Notes: a model not told the origin generated them from the sequence alone. A stretch of DNA of 64,000 nt from Candidatus Pacearchaeota archaeon (GCA_041651235.1 JBAZJQ010000001.1:558449-622448); one strand, 5' to 3'. Shown: positions 7,466 through 14,571, counted from the first letter of the stretch. Translations and numbers: made by a program.

Positions 7466-9829
7466 TTAAAATTCCCCTAATTTCATTTGCTTTTTGCCTT
7501 CTATTAATTGATTAATATCTACATTGAAAACTTCAAAGATGTTTTCAACTGCTGGAAGAATCTGATTGTTTAAATAATAATTAATATCATATTTTCCTGA
7601 TTCATCAATCATCTTAGCTCTGTCTCTTACAAGTGCTTTTTTATTATCTGATTCTGCAATATAATATTGAATTAACATGCCTAAATTAATTGGAATATTT
7701 TTTGCAATCATTTTTCTTGCAATTGCAATATGAGGAGTATTTGCTTTGTATTCATCAATTGATTTTTTTAGCTGAGTTCTTATTACTAATTCAGATAATT
7801 CAATTTTTCTTTCTTTAATTTTCTTAATTGTTTCTTTAATATATTCCAGTGCTTTTTTTTCATTTCCATCTGTAAGAATTAATTTTAGTATTTTGCTTTG
7901 AACTTCTCTTGCTAAATTACACCAGTCTCTTCTTACTGTTTCAAATCCTCTTATTTTTAGTTTATTATCTTCTGTAATAAGTGCATATTTCTTTTTTGCT
8001 CCAAATTCCCCTGTTCTTTTTGTTACCCAGATTCCTCTTTTATAGAAATCTTCCAGTTCCAGCTCCATTATTCCTGGAAGATGTTCATTAATTTGTTTTA
8101 ATAAATCAAGAGCTTGTTTTTTTGATTTGTTATCCAGACTTACTGCAATACTATCGGTATCACTATAAATTGGCTGAAAATTTGATTGTTCAAATTTTTT
8201 AATTGCTGATTTTATGTTTTCTCTTGCAAAATAAGCTGTTGATGCAGCTGCTTCTAAACAATAATATCTTGCTCCGAAAAATCCTTGATAACCATAAGCT
8301 GCATTTGCTATTAGCTTAAATGCATTGCTTCTTGCTTTTAAAATTGGATTGGGATTTTTATTATATTCTTTTTTAAATTCTCTTCTTTTTTCAATAATCT
8401 GCTTTAGAAGTTCAGGAAAAAATCCTGGTTTTTTTGAAAAATAAACTTTTTTATTATTTATTTCTGAAATTATATTTGTTTTTTCTTTGGATAGAGTTGA
8501 TAGACTGAGATTATAAGACACAATAACACTTGCATACATACTTGAGAAATCAAACATAGCAATATCATTGTATAATCCTGGTTTGGGCTGGAAAACAAAA
8601 GCTCCTTCATATTTTTCTCTTTCAATTCTATTTGAAATTTCTTCATGACTTGCTTTGTGCTTTGCTATTTCATTGAATTTATGGAGATTATGAAGAATAT
8701 AGTTTTCAACATTTTGAGACATTGAATCTCTAGATACATCATAAGGAGGTTCTTGAAGAACTCTTGAAAATTCTAAAATATCTGGCCAAACCTTTTCAAA
8801 TAATTTATATGTTAAAACTGAATCTTGAAGATTATATTCAAAAAAATCTTCCCAATGCTTTTGTGTATGTTCTGTTTTATTCATATCAATATGAGAAATA
8901 TCATTCTTTTTTTCTCCAATAAGTTCATTTGCAACTTCATTTAAAGAAAGAGTTTCTGACTGGAGATACTGGCTGTATGCTACTTGTATAAATCTAAATA
9001 AATCTACATGAGTTATTCCTTTTATTTTTCCTGATAAAACTCTTCCTCTGGAAAAAATAGGAGCAGAATTATCTAATCCTAGTGATAATTTTACTTTGTT
9101 ATGCTCTGCTCTTGCTCTTAAATAAGGCAAATCAAAACCATCTGAAAAATAACCTACTAAAAAATCTGGGGAATATTCTTTTATATATTTTACAAAAGCT
9201 TCTAGCATTTCTGCTTCATCTTTAAAATATTCAACAAAGGATTTTTTTGATTGTTTTTTCCAGGTAAGAACTTTTTTGAAATTATTACCTACTAATGAAA
9301 TCATTAAGATTTCTCCTTTTCCTATTTCAAATTCATTTGTTTCAATATCATAAGCTAGAAATTTCGGATGAAATTGAATATCTGATTGTGATTGTGTTAT
9401 TTTCTCTGCTTTAATTACAAAATCTACTTCTAAATTAGAACATTCATTATTTGATGCAAGTTCTCCTTCAATTTCCCATAACGTTAAAGGTGTTAGCTTA
9501 TTTTCAATTAAGAATTTAGTTATTATATTGATATCATTTTCATAAACTTCAAACTTTTCTGCAATTTCTTTTGTTTGTTTTGATGAGGAGGTATAAACTT
9601 TTAGTGCTTTAACTGGTTTTCCTAAGAAATTTTTGGATTCTTCTTGTATCTTGATTGTATCTAGTTTTTTCTTTGCCTTTTCTATATCTTTAATTATATA
9701 GCACCAGTCATTAAATTGCTTTAAGATACATAATCTCTTGCCTTTCTCATTTCTCCCATATACTTGAATATAGGTTTGATTATTTAGTTCAAAGGATTCA
9801 AAATTAATAGGGATAAATGTGAATTTCAT
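7466..9829 (-). CDS. polB: family-B DNA polymerase
   Basis: Exo I YDIETN, Exo II YNLQDS, Pol A DFSSMYASVIVSYNLS, Pol B KLIANAAYGY, Pol C YSDTDSI; 787 aa, no intein. Confidence 0.95.
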   Translation of the reverse strand: MKFTFIPINFESFELNNQTYIQVYGRNEKGKRLCILKQFNDWCYIIKDIEKAKKKLDTIKIQEESKNFLGKPVKALKVYTSSSKQTKEIAEKFEVYENDINIITKFLIENKLTPLTLWEIEGELASNNECSNLEVDFVIKAEKITQSQSDIQFHPKFLAYDIETNEFEIGKGEILMISLVGNNFKKVLTWKKQSKKSFVEYFKDEAEMLEAFVKYIKEYSPDFLVGYFSDGFDLPYLRARAEHNKVKLSLGLDNSAPIFSRGRVLSGKIKGITHVDLFRFIQVAYSQYLQSETLSLNEVANELIGEKKNDISHIDMNKTEHTQKHWEDFFEYNLQDSVLTYKLFEKVWPDILEFSRVLQEPPYDVSRDSMSQNVENYILHNLHKFNEIAKHKASHEEISNRIEREKYEGAFVFQPKPGLYNDIAMFDFSSMYASVIVSYNLSLSTLSKEKTNIISEINNKKVYFSKKPGFFPELLKQIIEKRREFKKEYNKNPNPILKARSNAFKLIANAAYGYQGFFGARYYCLEAAASTAYFARENIKSAIKKFEQSNFQPIYSDTDSIAVSLDNKSKKQALDLLKQINEHLPGIMELELEDFYKRGIWVTKRTGEFGAKKKYALITEDNKLKIRGFETVRRDWCNLAREVQSKILKLILTDGNEKKALEYIKETIKKIKERKIELSELVIRTQLKKSIDEYKANTPHIAIARKMIAKNIPINLGMLIQYYIAESDNKKALVRDRAKMIDESGKYDINYYLNNQILPAVENIFEVFNVDINQLIEGKKQMKLGEF

Positions 9830-9867
9830 GATTTTAAGAATAGAAACAGATATTTAAGGATTGGGGT

Positions 9868-10137
9868 TTATTTTTTATAGATATTATCGTGATGATCAAA
9901 ATCATCAAAATTAATTGTATCTGTTGACTTAATATATTGGAATATTAATACAAAATGTCCAATGTGAACTCTCTTTGAATCTTTCATATTATATCTTAAA
10001 TTTTTATAATGTTCAATATCATAAGAATTAACAATTTCATTTATTTTTTTAATAAGCTGTTCGTGAATATTAGGATTTTTCTTTGATAGTTTTTTGATTT
10101 TATCATTAAGATGCTCACTAATCTGAAAATTATGCAT
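9868..10137 (-). CDS. RelE/ParE-superfamily toxin-like protein
   Basis: 89 aa; KNLRYNMKDSKRVHIGHFVLIFQY...HHDNIYKK resembles the RelE/YafQ core and C-terminal H..Y. A small antitoxin-like gene lies immediately upstream. Confidence 0.5.
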   Translation of the reverse strand: MHNFQISEHLNDKIKKLSKKNPNIHEQLIKKINEIVNSYDIEHYKNLRYNMKDSKRVHIGHFVLIFQYIKSTDTINFDDFDHHDNIYKK

Positions 10138-10156
10138 TTTTACCTCTTTTGAATTT

Positions 10157-10393
10157 TTAGTCTGTAGATTTTCTTAAATCTTCAATAGAATTATACTTAA
10201 TATATTTTCCTTTTCTTATTTTCTCAAGTTTTTCTAAGTATTCTGGTCTTAATTCTGGTTCAAGAAAACTTTCTTCATAAGCTCTTGCTATAAAAGCAAC
10301 TGCTTCACTTTTGTTTTTTAATCCAAATTTTGCTTTAATAATATTTAATATTCTATCTTCTCTTTCATTAATGTCAATTATATTCTGAACCAT
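10157..10393 (-). CDS. antitoxin-like small protein (DUF2683-like)
   Basis: Trimmed to ATG 10393: MVQNIIDINEREDRILNIIKAKFGLKNKSEAVAFIARAYEE...EPELRPEYLEKL. Gap to the toxin-like gene is 19 nt. Confidence 0.45.
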   Translation of the reverse strand: MVQNIIDINEREDRILNIIKAKFGLKNKSEAVAFIARAYEESFLEPELRPEYLEKLEKIRKGKYIKYNSIEDLRKSTD

Positions 10394-10517
10394 TTTATAA
10401 TATATTATAATAAAATATAATGTTTTATTATATTTAAATGTTACTATTTTATATCTGTATTTACTTCTAAATGGTAACAATAATAATGTTTATATACTAG
10501 TTTTGCTTATAAATAAT

Positions 10518-10730
10518 ATGGAAATTAATGGTATAAGAATTGGATCTGGAAGACAGGTTATACCTGTTCAAAGCGTTGAAAATAGAGGAAATTATGGCCA
10601 TGGAAGTTATGATGAGCAAAGAAATAGAAGACCTTTGGTTAGCTCAAGGTTTGATTTTGGATATGATTATAAAGGCAGGAAATGGATATTTAGAGATAAT
10701 GAAAATAATGAGGTTGATTTAAAAGCATAA
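10518..10730 (+). CDS. hypothetical small protein, gene 1 of a 3-gene operon
   Basis: 70 aa from ATG 10518; stop lies 1 nt before the next start. Confidence 0.4.
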   Translation: MEINGIRIGSGRQVIPVQSVENRGNYGHGSYDEQRNRRPLVSSRFDFGYDYKGRKWIFRDNENNEVDLKA

Positions 10731-10731
10731 A

Positions 10732-11277
10732 ATGAGCAGACAAGGATTATTATTTGGAGAATTACCACAGGAAGAACGAGAATCACATTTAGAAGAAATT
10801 ACATATGTACCTGGAAATGCAAGAATAGCATCTGTACAGAGGGGAGATAATCTTACTTTCTATAGGTTATGTAATGAACAAGGATTAGAGCCTGAAGAAT
10901 GCTATAGAAGTCAATATGAACAAGGAAGATTGGATTTTGAAAAACTCGTTTTAGAAAATAATTTGGGGGAAGTTGTTGGAAATATTGGTCCGACATCTTA
11001 TAAAAAACAAGAAAGAATATCAAGAAAAACTTCTAGTAGAAAAAGTAAAAATCAAGATAAATATCCTTTGCTTTTAGCTGCTGCTAGGCAAGAAGGAGTT
11101 AGATCTGATGATGTTTATGAAGATATAGAGACTAAAAGAAAGCATTTAAAACAAATAATGGGATATAGGAATTTAATAGGCTCAAAAGGAGTAAGAATCA
11201 GAATTGAGGATGTTAATGCTGAAAGAATCGGAAAAGCATATCAAGAACATATTAATATGGCTAGGAAATATGAATGA
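10732..11277 (+). CDS. hypothetical protein, gene 2 of a 3-gene operon
   Basis: 181 aa; ATGA overlap with gene 3. Confidence 0.5.
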   Translation: MSRQGLLFGELPQEERESHLEEITYVPGNARIASVQRGDNLTFYRLCNEQGLEPEECYRSQYEQGRLDFEKLVLENNLGEVVGNIGPTSYKKQERISRKTSSRKSKNQDKYPLLLAAARQEGVRSDDVYEDIETKRKHLKQIMGYRNLIGSKGVRIRIEDVNAERIGKAYQEHINMARKYE

Positions 11278-11921
11278 TGGAATCTATAGATCAACAAAAA
11301 TTAGAACAAATTCTTGAAGAGTTGAATAGAAAGGGGATTAGTAAAAAATATATAAGTTCTATTGGCAAGGATATTTCATCTAGGCGAAGGTATCATCCTC
11401 TTTTTTCTGGAGATTTTAAAGAGATTCAAGAAGTTCATCAAATGGATTGTTTTTTTTCAACACCAGAAAAACCAATTTTAGCAACATATGGATTAGCTAA
11501 TTGTTTGGGAGTTTTAGCATATGACCCCCTAAAGAAAATAGCATTTTTAGGACATTCTGATGCTTTTTCTTATAAGTATAAAGGAGAAGATAAACTAGGA
11601 CATCCTTCAGTAAATGCACATGTATCAAGATTCTTCTGGGATTTAAGAGATAGAAAAGATAATTATTTACTTGATGCTTGGATTGTTATTGGGAGTAATC
11701 CAGATAATAAGGCTATAGAGACAACTGAAAATACATTCAAGGATTTAAATAATAGCCCATATTTTTCAGGTGTTAGAATAAGAAAACTTGAAAGATTAAA
11801 TGTTAAGGATGATGGAAGTATAGGGATTGACTCAAGGACAGGTAGATTATTTTCTTATGATCCTAAATTAAATCCTCTTCCTAGACAAGAGGGATTTTGG
11901 AGCCAAGTTAAACTATTTTAA
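11274..11921 (+). CDS. CheD-like (Cys/His deamidase-fold) protein, gene 3 of the operon
   Basis: YGLANCLGVLAYDPLKKIAFLGHS matches the CheD catalytic core pattern GLGSCV.V...D...K.....H (nucleophile Cys, His about 17 residues later). Confidence 0.45.
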   Translation: MMESIDQQKLEQILEELNRKGISKKYISSIGKDISSRRRYHPLFSGDFKEIQEVHQMDCFFSTPEKPILATYGLANCLGVLAYDPLKKIAFLGHSDAFSYKYKGEDKLGHPSVNAHVSRFFWDLRDRKDNYLLDAWIVIGSNPDNKAIETTENTFKDLNNSPYFSGVRIRKLERLNVKDDGSIGIDSRTGRLFSYDPKLNPLPRQEGFWSQVKLF

Positions 11922-11982
11922 AGAAATATTTCATATAAGATTTAATGCAAATTTTTATTAATACTTATTTATTATATTTTTC

Positions 11983-13008
11983 ATGGGATTACAAATAGGT
12001 GAGATTATAACCAAAAATGAAATTAAGTTTTCTGATTTAAAGGGAAAGATAATTGCTGTTGATGCATTTAATGCAATTTATCAGTTTCTTACTACAATAA
12101 GACAGCCAGATGGAACTCCTTTAAAAGATTCTAGTGGAAATGTAACTAGTCATATATCTGGGTTGTTTTATAGAAATATGAGCTTAATTTTAGAAGGAGT
12201 TAAGTTAATTTATGTTTTTGATGGTGAAGCTCCTGAGCTAAAGAAAAAAACAAGAGAAAATAGAGAAGGTATCAAAGAGCAGTATAAAGAGAAATACAAA
12301 AAAGCTGTTGAAGACGAAGATGTTGAAGCAATGGGAAAATATGCAAGATTTGAAACTAGATTAGATAAAGAAAAAATTGAAGAGAGCAAGGAATTATTAG
12401 AAGCAATGGGTATTGCTGTTGTACAAGCTCCTTCAGAAGGAGAAGCTCAAGCTAGTTATTTAGCTAAAAATAAAACAGCTTATGCTGTTGCTAGCCAGGA
12501 TTATGACTGCTTGATGTTTAAATGCCCTTTATTAATTCAGAATTTAAGTTTAGCTAGAAAGAGAAAAACTATTTCAGGTTATAAAGAAGTTTTTCCGCAG
12601 GTTATTCAGTTAGATAGTGTGCTTGCTGAATTAGAAATTAATCAAGAGCAATTAATTTGTCTAGGAATTTTATGTGGAACTGATTATAATCCTGGAGGTG
12701 TAAAAGGATTAGGGCCTAAAAAATCTTTGAAAATAGTAAGAGAATATAAAACAAAAGAAAAGATTTTTGATGCTATTGAGAATGATGAGAAATTTGAAAA
12801 ATATGAATTAGACTTTGACTGGAAAGAAATATATGAAGAAATTGAAAATCCAAAAGTTAAAGATGTCAAAATTGAATTTCCTAAAATAAATAAGGAAAAA
12901 ATAAGAGAGATATTAAGAAGCCATGATTTTTCAGAAGAAAGAATAAATAATCAGTTAGAGAAAATTGATGAGTTGAAAAAACAGAAATCGCAAAAAACAC
13001 TTTTCTGA
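11983..13008 (+). CDS. fen: flap endonuclease 1
   Basis: MGLQIGEII...GKIIAVDAFNAIYQFL, SEGEAQASYL, SQDYDCLMF, LGILCGTDYNPGGVKGLGPKKSL (H3TH). Confidence 0.95.
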   Translation: MGLQIGEIITKNEIKFSDLKGKIIAVDAFNAIYQFLTTIRQPDGTPLKDSSGNVTSHISGLFYRNMSLILEGVKLIYVFDGEAPELKKKTRENREGIKEQYKEKYKKAVEDEDVEAMGKYARFETRLDKEKIEESKELLEAMGIAVVQAPSEGEAQASYLAKNKTAYAVASQDYDCLMFKCPLLIQNLSLARKRKTISGYKEVFPQVIQLDSVLAELEINQEQLICLGILCGTDYNPGGVKGLGPKKSLKIVREYKTKEKIFDAIENDEKFEKYELDFDWKEIYEEIENPKVKDVKIEFPKINKEKIREILRSHDFSEERINNQLEKIDELKKQKSQKTLF

Positions 13009-13023
13009 ATTTATGGAATATCG

Positions 13024-13126
13024 GTAATGTATTAAGACATGAGATGAGTTGATGAGAAGATTAAGCTTTGTTTGATATCTTTTAAGAATAAATGATTTGT
13101 TATTTGTTTTATTAAGATATTAATAT
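13024..13126 (+). repeat. intergenic modular repeat, locus 2 (A+B+C)
   Basis: GTAATGTATTAAGACAT / GTTGATGAGAAGATTAAGCTTTGTTTGAT / AATGATTTGTTATTTGTTTTATTAAGATATTAATAT; begins 16 nt after the fen stop. Confidence 0.75.
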
Positions 13127-13136
13127 TATTTAAGAA

Positions 13137-13886
13137 TCAATCTTCTCCTAAAACAAAATTAGGATTATCATCACTTATAGTTTTTGTGAACTTTCCTGCT
13201 AGTTCAACTTCTGCTTTTAGTTTTTCTCTATTAAGTTCTTCTTCTTGTTTTGCTTTTTTTTCTTTATTAGATTTAAATAAATCTGCAAGATTTTTAGAAA
13301 AAATAGAACCTAAGACAAAAAGAATTATTATAATCCCTGCTCCTATTAATTGCATCCACCAAGTATTAAAAACAGCAATTGCACTGATTATAAGTTCGGC
13401 TAATTTTTTTATTATTCCTATTAGTGAGATAATTATTATTGTTCCCAGTGAGATTGCTATTTGAGTAAAATCAGATACAGGCAAAAATTCTGAAGCTCTA
13501 TAAATATACATGAAGATAGTTATCCATAGAGTTAAAGATAGTAAAAATAACCAGCTTAGACTCGGTTCTATCCCTAAAAAGAATTTAAAAATAGGATCGG
13601 TATATGGGGATATCTTATTATATCTATTTATTACTGGTCCAATATAAGTGTTATTCGCAAGAATTTTTCCCCATTCTTGTTTCAGATATTGAGTCTTGTC
13701 ATTTTCATTTTGGAATTTTCCTCCAATTGTTTGTATTTTTTCTAATTCAATTGGAAGTCCTGAATCTGGATTTACTTCTCCTAATCCTAAATCAGGCAAG
13801 GGAGGAGATTCTTCTGCTTTAATAGAAATTGCTAATATATTTAAGAGTAATAATGATATTAATAAAAATACAAATCTCTTTTTCAT
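13137..13886 (-). CDS. signal-peptide membrane protein, unknown function
   Basis: N-terminal signal/anchor, several TM helices, K/E-rich C-terminal tail. Confidence 0.55.
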   Translation of the reverse strand: MKKRFVFLLISLLLLNILAISIKAEESPPLPDLGLGEVNPDSGLPIELEKIQTIGGKFQNENDKTQYLKQEWGKILANNTYIGPVINRYNKISPYTDPIFKFFLGIEPSLSWLFLLSLTLWITIFMYIYRASEFLPVSDFTQIAISLGTIIIISLIGIIKKLAELIISAIAVFNTWWMQLIGAGIIIILFVLGSIFSKNLADLFKSNKEKKAKQEEELNREKLKAEVELAGKFTKTISDDNPNFVLGED

Positions 13887-13926: not shown

Positions 13927-14571
13927 TTAAGATCTATAACGTAAATTTTGTGCTTCAGTATTTAATGCACTTACATCTGCAGCAGCTTTATATGCTTTTG
14001 AAGTCTTTTTGCTTAATTCTTTATTAAATCTTATTTTATCTATCCATCTATGTAGTGGAGCAGAACCTGTAAATATTGCTACAGCTAAAACAACAAATAT
14101 TACTCCAATCATAATCATTCCAATCATTCCTCCTGCCCCGACCATTACCGCAATAAAATACATTAATCCTCCAACTATTTTTCTTGTTCCCCCGGATAAA
14201 ACTAAAATTATTAATGCTCCTATTCCTATAACTAAATTTGTAAAAGTACTAAGAGGTAATAAATTAGCTAACTCTAAAATAATTAAGCTAAAAACAATAA
14301 ATCCTATTACTGAAACCACTAACCACATATTGGCTGGTTGATCTGATCCTGTCTTTTGGTCTGGAACAATATATTTTTCAAGGATATTTGTGTTTATCCA
14401 GCTCCAAACCTTTGTATTTGTTGAATCGTAGGTATTTGAATCATATAAAGGATTATTGGTTGCAGGTGCAGTAGTATCATCTGCACTACTTATCATGATT
14501 AAATTAATAGTTAGTAATGTTAGAATTAAAACTGGCAAAATGAATACTTTCTTATTTATCCTCTTTTCCAT
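13927..14571 (-). CDS. signal-peptide membrane protein, unknown function
   Basis: N-terminal signal/anchor and about four TM helices. Confidence 0.55.
   Translation of the reverse strand: MEKRINKKVFILPVLILTLLTINLIMISSADDTTAPATNNPLYDSNTYDSTNTKVWSWINTNILEKYIVPDQKTGSDQPANMWLVVSVIGFIVFSLIILELANLLPLSTFTNLVIGIGALIILVLSGGTRKIVGGLMYFIAVMVGAGGMIGMIMIGVIFVVLAVAIFTGSAPLHRWIDKIRFNKELSKKTSKAYKAAADVSALNTEAQNLRYRS

Follow-up and report, generated by a model that had tools for sequence, protein, structure and literature searches.

An unnamed prokaryotic protein family of the CheD/NTAN1/XopAK cysteine hydrolase superfamily, encoded upstream of fen in a Candidatus Pacearchaeota archaeon

We analyzed three tightly packed genes, here called A, B and C, in a 64,000-nucleotide stretch of DNA (the window) from a Candidatus Pacearchaeota archaeon (GCA_041651235.1 JBAZJQ010000001.1:558449-622448). 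We find that protein C, for which an original prediction made from the DNA sequence had proposed a likeness to CheD, is a remote superfamily relative and a member of an unnamed sister family to CheD, NTAN1 and XopAK/HopK1-C, belonging to none of them and standing equally distant from CheD, NTAN1 and XopAK. The family is present in archaea and bacteria, and neither Pfam nor NCBIfam gives it a separate entry. The best explanation of our results is that C is a cytoplasmic cysteine amidohydrolase of this unnamed prokaryotic family, within the CNF1/YfiH-like superfamily that also includes CheD, eukaryotic NTAN1 and XopAK/HopK1-C. The three genes and the two motifs of protein C are listed below, with positions counted from the first base of the window.

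10518..10730, + strand: gene A, a 70-amino-acid hydrophilic orphan protein (open reading frame (ORF) call, in-frame codon score 0.57)
10732..11277, + strand: gene B, 181 amino acids, a lineage-restricted family without assigned function (ORF call, codon score 0.54)
11274..11921, + strand: gene C, 215 amino acids, an unnamed family in the CheD/NTAN1/XopAK (CNF1/YfiH-like) cysteine hydrolase superfamily
11484..11555, + strand: putative catalytic triad codons of gene C, Thr71 to His94 (Thr71, Cys77, His94), codons checked and conserved across the family
11829..11885, + strand: C-terminal motif of protein C, D-x-R-T-G ... Y-x-P-x-x-N-P-x-x-R, Asp186 to Arg204, with family-specific conservation

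A conserved triad in an unnamed family

The Cys/His motif quoted in the original prediction corresponds to residues 70-95 of the 215-residue protein C, with 17 residues from Cys77 to His94. We searched 1.84 billion cluster representatives exhaustively and obtained a C family of 74 (C included) at an expectation value (E) <= 1e-3, 10 of which lie at E <= 1e-10. The putative triad is kept throughout the family, with Thr71 in 69/74, Cys77 in 70/74 and His94 in 72/74 members, and the Cys and His thus show the conservation among homologs that had been put forward as a check. Pro67, Phe91 and Gly140 are each conserved in 69/74. Near the C terminus the family carries a further motif of its own, in which D186 is conserved in 70, R188 in 64, G190 in 70, Y195 in 69, P197 in 54, N200 in 54 and R204 in 42 of the 74 representatives. 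In alignments, the D-x-x-T-G part of this motif falls on the final conserved strand of CheD, and the Y...NP...R tail lies outside the aligned CheD region.

Searched by itself, C gave zero family matches in Pfam, chance nanobody matches alone among Protein Data Bank (PDB) sequences, and a sole NCBIfam match to CheD at E 0.18, covering residues 64-94 at 11.8 bits against a cut-off of 251. P0017 had zero matches among PDB sequences. Protein C has a hydrophilic N terminus in which inspection reveals no signal-peptide-like stretch, and the guanine-plus-cytosine (GC) content of its gene, 0.307, is native-like.

The family is not uniform in length. About 24 of the 87 rows of a family tree form a subgroup with N-terminal extensions of roughly 100 amino acids or more ahead of the catalytic core. 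The genes of this subgroup stand alone in their loci, and one of them, L033:4686-5558, comes from a Parachlamydiaceae metagenome-assembled genome.

Remote homology to CheD

The motif of C had been described as collinear with the CheD core, with the His about 17 residues after the Cys, and profile comparisons uphold that description. The C-family profile matches chain C of PDB 2F9Z, which is T. maritima CheD, with E 6.9e-9. The match extends over about 120 positions (profile 55-175, chain 16-143), and in this alignment the catalytic Cys and His columns of CheD coincide with those of the C family. A second sub-profile of the family finds 2F9Z at E 3.6e-10 and, weakly, the YfiH-type purine nucleoside phosphorylase 7FBG at E 0.14. 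When the 11-member subgroup of C was compared by hhalign with six true archaeal CheDs of the same phylum, the two aligned with 94 % probability (E 1.4e-7, 133 columns), again with Cys and His columns matched. The C-family profile also retrieves true CheDs from genomes of the phylum, as 7/22 scanned ORFs score 72-113 bits on PF03975, the Pfam model of CheD. Weak matches to full-length CheD models extend to as many as 31/74 family members, at a maximum of about 23 bits versus cut-offs of about 240-250. The ESM Atlas model of C (predicted template-modeling score (pTM) 0.69) aligns with an archaeal CheD at a template-modeling (TM) score of 0.52 by the query and 0.67 by that CheD's row. Together these comparisons, made largely at the level of sequence profiles, indicate that the likeness between the C motif and CheD stems from true remote homology with statistical support.

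Within the roughly 120-130 homologous residues, CheD and C have the same Thr/Cys/His spacing (+6/+17, as in T71/C77/H94 of C), and both have a G-x-G-x-C loop and a D/N-x-x-T-G strand. The two nevertheless differ in several respects. C falls far under every CheD model cut-off, lacks the H-x-M-L-P motif that follows the His in CheD and the G-G-A-x-M-F motif of its Gly-rich strand, and has an N-terminal extension of about 45 amino acids as well as the family-specific C-terminal motif. A quick tree was built from 87 rows: six CheDs, eight ORFs of the phylum and 73 of the 74 family rows, the 113-residue P0019 being left out. In it the six true CheDs form their own clade on a branch of length 3.05, with a Shimodaira-Hasegawa-like approximate likelihood-ratio (SH-aLRT) support of 99, whereas C is placed in a different subgroup of 20 rows.

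The genomic setting also differs from that of CheD. The original prediction had recognized no chemotaxis genes in the window, and we extended this statement to the genome (87.75 % complete), where profile searches found no CheD, methyl-accepting chemotaxis protein (MCP) signaling domain (MCPsignal), CheW, CheC, CheR or archaellin while positive controls responded. The survey for che genes that had been suggested thus came back empty; given the separate true-CheD clade and the lack of che or receptor genes in the 87.75 %-complete genome, we rejected C as a CheD of chemotaxis.

A comparison with PF03975 had also been suggested. C has no match to this model at E <= 1, a result that is uninformative about the motif since PF03975 begins past the catalytic His: CheD residues 52-155 correspond to profile positions 1-107, and the Cys and His of the same protein lie at residues 33 and 50. 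The C family is therefore missed by PF03975 because the model starts after the catalytic His and cannot see the motif. The conditions that the original prediction had named as refuting it thus do not overturn the CheD likeness. We made the same observation on L019:613-1107 and other true CheDs, to which PF03975 matches without the Cys/His motif; any remote CheD-like protein that is recognized chiefly through this motif escapes the model.

True CheD genes, scoring 72-113 bits on PF03975, do occur in small genomes of the same phylum (L016, L017, L018, L019, L021, L024 and L025). One of them, L016:1054-1881 in genome G267, is a 276-amino-acid ORF in which a response-regulator receiver domain (71.7 bits) is fused to a true CheD domain (72.2 bits). 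Some members of this phylum lineage appear to retain parts of chemotaxis.

Proposed catalytic function

The characterized relatives CheD, NTAN1, CNF1 and BLF1 all convert the side-chain amide of Gln or Asn to an acid. By analogy with them, we consider it fairly probable that C works as an active Cys-His-Thr amidohydrolase, turning the amide on a Gln or Asn side chain of a protein or peptide into the acid. In the mechanism that we propose, His94 would activate Cys77 while Thr71 orients His94, Cys77 would attack the side-chain amide of Gln or Asn in the protein or peptide, and ammonia would be released, leaving Glu or Asp. The conserved tail of C, Tyr195 (Pro197) ... Asn200-Pro201 ... Arg204, probably shapes the substrate site. 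For comparison, the accessible part of one study gives the triad of T. maritima CheD as Cys27/His44/Thr21 and that of NTAN1 as Cys75/His92/Ser69, and it describes the NTAN1 variants C75A and H92A as inactive, which makes both the Cys and the His essential (PMC7022378).

Several points weigh against this reading. No curated model has a cut-off that C itself attains, and the fold evidence for C comes from the Atlas's own model together with sequence profiles. We infer both catalytic activity and a protein substrate for the whole family from its relatives. B. subtilis CheD reportedly acts by binding as well as by catalysis, according to the accessible part of one report (PMC3513319), and a binding role is possible for C too. 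The 4-nt overlap between B and C is what is expected of functionally linked genes, and several of the C-family loci used to survey neighbors reach only about 1.5 kb to each side. Finally, the genome is 87.75 % complete, so a gene reported here as absent is one that was not found.

CheD and NTAN1 are the two characterized non-toxin branches of this fold, and they are tied to chemotaxis and to the eukaryotic N-degron pathway, respectively. The C family would be a third branch, of 74 representatives with an intact triad and a motif of its own, occurring without chemotaxis or an N-degron pathway. Such a branch points to protein deamidation serving further, still-to-be-found purposes.

XopAK, NTAN1 and the wider superfamily

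We also weighed a role for C as an effector that is delivered into host cells and deamidates a host protein, in parallel with type III effectors of the XopAK/HopK1-C kind, and we think this unlikely. In its favor, 39/74 family members weakly match the XopAK model NF041406 (best E 5.8e-8), the large subgroup with long N-terminal extensions (about 24/87 tree rows) includes one member in a Parachlamydiaceae genome, and the present genome is small (1.0 Mb), as in host-dependent archaea, a lifestyle that is presumed for this organism. However, the top XopAK score is 31.1 bits against a cut-off of 150, and C itself is unmatched at E <= 0.5. The hydrophilic N terminus of C offers no signal-peptide-like stretch, and we identified no delivery system, although secretion systems were not searched for. 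In the accessible part of a 2024 minireview the catalytic 'deaminase' domain of XopAK is predicted only, and no biochemical activity or target is described there (PMC11116571).

The weak model matches to the C family make XopAK, the HopK1 C-terminal domain and RipBQ appear to share the superfamily. These proteins are secreted bacterial effectors, whereas C is archaeal and has no recognizable export signal. The matches, weak but frequent, suggest that the XopAK/HopK1-C effectors of plant pathogens share the CheD/NTAN1 fold. Our literature search, in which subscription journals were thinly covered, found no paper on this prokaryotic family and none tying HopK1 or XopAK to that fold. A bolder proposal, which we hold to be improbable, is that the C family is a widespread class of protein-deamidating effectors common to host-dependent microbes (small-genome archaea, Parachlamydiaceae and others), related to XopAK/HopK1-C and here modifying a protein of a host or partner cell. 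If that were true, the substrate in this archaeon or in the chlamydial subgroup could reveal how XopAK and HopK1 act.

A third possibility is that C is an NTAN1-type amidase, acting on N-terminal Asn (or Gln) and so preparing proteins for N-terminus-dependent degradation. Two lines of evidence point that way. The NTAN1 model PF14736 (N_Asn_amidohyd) is matched by 14/74 family members at E <= 5 and by 8/74 at E <= 0.01, and its cut-off of 24 bits is attained by 2/73 relatives; moreover, residues 35-215 of the Atlas model of C align with chordate NTAN1 at TM 0.61. Against this, C itself does not match PF14736, and the matches of its relatives are confined to about positions 8-155 of the 270 in the profile, which is the shared core. 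Among PDB sequences, family profiles match CheD and not NTAN1. Human NTAN1 (PDB 6A0E) belongs to the same superfamily and has the same triad geometry, with Ser/Cys/His, but its appended C-terminal region, with residues that recognize the N-terminal Asn (Ser254, Thr255, Glu260), is absent from C, which ends about 22 residues past the CheD-like core. Three further NTAN1 residues with which that enzyme holds the N-terminal Asn, named in the accessible part of the NTAN1 study and located ahead of the Cys (Asp71/Thr73/Thr74), are replaced by Gly73/Ala75/Asn76 in C, in a register taken from the triad spacing and not from structure (PMC7022378). No ClpS, arginyl-transferase (ATE_N) or Leu/Phe-transferase (Leu_Phe_trans) was found in the genome, and positive controls again responded. 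Taken together, an NTAN1-type role for C is hardly likely.

The glutamine-deamidase toxins CNF1 and BLF1 and the YfiH-type enzymes are placed in the same structural superfamily, the CNF1/YfiH-like cysteine hydrolases, in the accessible part of the same study (PMC7022378). Unlike C, CNF1 and BLF1 are represented by domains of larger toxin proteins, and the PDB searches gave no sequence-level match between them and either C or the C-family profiles.

Genes A and B and the question of a three-gene system

The original prediction had also raised the idea of an effector encoded together with partner or immunity proteins. In this scenario A, B and C would act as one functional unit, the deamidase being accompanied by a partner, a regulator or an immunity protein. 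The 1-nt gap and 4-nt overlap leave no space for internal promoters, and all three genes have native codon usage, both of which favor a unit. The distribution of the genes does not. Gene A is unique to this genome, a B-like gene accompanies fen (flap endonuclease) without C in 12/12 loci, and every other C-family locus that we examined is without A or B. We therefore consider such a unit very unlikely.

Both upstream proteins had been called orphans, and for A this is correct: it matches only itself among 5.8 billion proteins, with no match in 48 same-genus genomes and no paralog in its own genome. A candidate relative, a 62-amino-acid ORF at the same position in L042 (31 % identity over 59 residues, E 0.001), is unproven and was set aside, as it was not recovered genome-wide. 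Protein B looked like an orphan in a word-indexed search, and six-frame searches revealed relatives in its own taxonomic family: 9/48 same-genus genomes, 15/105 other genomes of the family and 1/24 of a second family have B homologs. In all 12 loci examined (seven same-genus loci, of the nine genomes with B, and five of five from other genera) the B-like gene lies upstream of fen. The seven same-genus loci have it on the strand of fen with the DNA polymerase gene polB nearby, and among the five loci from other genera polB is present in three of the short stretches available. Neither a C-family gene nor an A-like gene occurs in any of the 12.

B keeps a fixed place between two replication genes, which hints at a function linked to replication. 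The B family consists of uncharacterized, fast-evolving small proteins (L038-L044 and L047-L051, for example L038:4026-4553 and L047 at about 1531-1983). Protein B, its conserved C-terminal domain included, has no match in Pfam or PDB, and its Atlas model is poor (pTM 0.24) and without a usable match.

The C family has a different distribution. Among the 48 same-genus genomes it occurs in two, G004 (with two copies at other places in its genome) and G006 (weak), and 24 genomes from the order's other families yielded none. The genomes with B and those with the C family do not overlap, and only the genome of the window has both; the survey of the three-gene set in related genomes that had been proposed thus gives A in 0/48 and B in 9/48, none of these with C. 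In 16 C-family loci we found no recurrent neighbor except in two mutually syntenic chlamydial loci and for one ORF common to a single other pair. The closest relative of C with genomic context (48 % identity, L031) stands alone, as does the Parachlamydiaceae homolog, and no relatives of C were found among phage records or viral contigs. A predicted complex of C with B scored 0.00, which is not evidence either way. With A an orphan, B beside fen without C in all 12 loci and C without a recurrent neighbor in 16, we rejected a conserved A-B-C system. What this leaves is a lead and not a surprise, as remote CheD-like proteins are plausible and the three-gene system fails.

The simplest reading of the locus takes polB (divergent), B and fen as the conserved arrangement and C as an additional, lineage-specific gene placed between the last two. 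C would then probably be transcribed together with A and B and coupled to them in translation simply as a consequence of its position. Around C there are only short AT-rich two-copy repeats and no insertion scar. Given this lack of a flanking repeat, the native-like GC content and the codon score, the arrival of C was not recent, and its absence from relatives may be due to loss in them.

That C is instead a CheD remnant of a chemotaxis system since lost, or a binding protein that is catalytically idle, is highly improbable: true CheDs exist in the same phylum and the CheD homology of C is real, but C lies apart from them in the tree, lacks their H-x-M-L-P and G-G-A-x-M-F motifs, belongs to a family of 74 representatives that keeps the triad and has a C-terminal motif of its own, and is encoded by an intact gene of normal codon usage.

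Gene calls and neighborhood

The ORF calls and junction sequences agree with the original description of three ORFs of 70, 181 and 215 amino acids separated by a 1-nt gap and a 4-nt overlap. At the A/B junction TAA is followed by 1 nt and then ATG, and at the B/C junction the shared ATGA holds the TGA of B and the ATG of C. The frame of gene A is open from 10503, so that a start at the TTG there would give 75 amino acids and one at the ATG at 10518 gives 70. Judged by a codon model for which 289 long ORFs from this genome served as the training set (trained genes 0.41 +/- 0.11, off-frames -0.11 +/- 0.08), A (0.57), B (0.54) and C (0.41) are all gene-like. At the local composition, a frame would stay open for at least 181 codons by chance with a probability of about 2e-7.

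An 8537-base contig from a second assembler (run X1) spans 9980-13100 with zero differences, and this agreement indicates that the gene order is not an artifact of a single assembly. Run X1 is probably the source sample, so the contig provides an independent assembler and not an independent sample. The genome comprises 1.0 Mb in 22 contigs with 28.8 % GC, and its replication genes look archaeal; the family B polymerase, Fen1 and DUF2683 genes make the organism appear to be an archaeon. The features flanking the three genes are as follows.

7466..9829, - strand: family B DNA polymerase (polB), a conserved divergent neighbor with homologs in 7/7 same-genus loci and 3/5 more distant loci
9868-10137, - strand: ParE-like protein (20.6 bits, under the Pfam cut-off of 23; E 6.6e-4)
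10157-10480, - strand: DUF2683 protein (34.3 bits, cut-off 27)
10489..10496, + strand: possible promoter, TATA-box-like TTTATATA, centered about 26 nt before the ATG of gene A, read from the sequence
11983..13008, + strand: fen (XPG_I 93.4 bits, XPG_N 58.1 bits)

These assignments agree with the earlier placement of the locus between a toxin-antitoxin pair and fen, in that the ParE-like and DUF2683 genes (9868..10480, - strand) are likely such a pair. Their GC content is 0.207 versus 0.288 for the genome, and none of the seven loci that we examined in the same genus has the pair at the equivalent position, so it may be a mobile addition. Upstream of gene A, TTTATATA is a possible archaeal promoter for a leaderless A-B-C transcript, based on the general position rule for archaeal TATA boxes. 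A sigma-70 promoter scan returned 11 sites versus 12.3 in shuffles, with a model that is not applicable to archaea. Rfam gave zero matches on both strands of 9800-13100, and PADLOC and PHROGs returned nothing meaningful for A, B or C.

The stretch between polB and fen is variable, with the toxin-antitoxin pair here, FHA-domain genes in two other genomes and yet another gene in G017. In G017, the junction that C occupies in the window, with the B-like gene on one side and fen on the other, holds a different gene of 170 amino acids (L039:4504-5013); the B/fen junction seems to accept extra genes repeatedly. In two same-genus genomes a small FHA-domain protein (L043:998-1312, 65.6 bits; L044:3263-3607, 55.3 bits) is encoded directly upstream of the B-like gene; these FHA-domain genes overlap the start of the B-like gene and occupy the slot held by A in the window. 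The downstream side of fen keeps its gene order across several same-genus loci, and the polB side is variable. Membrane proteins with signal-peptide-like N termini are encoded downstream of fen in the window (13137-13886 and 13927-14571), and they recur beside fen in L038, L039 and L044.

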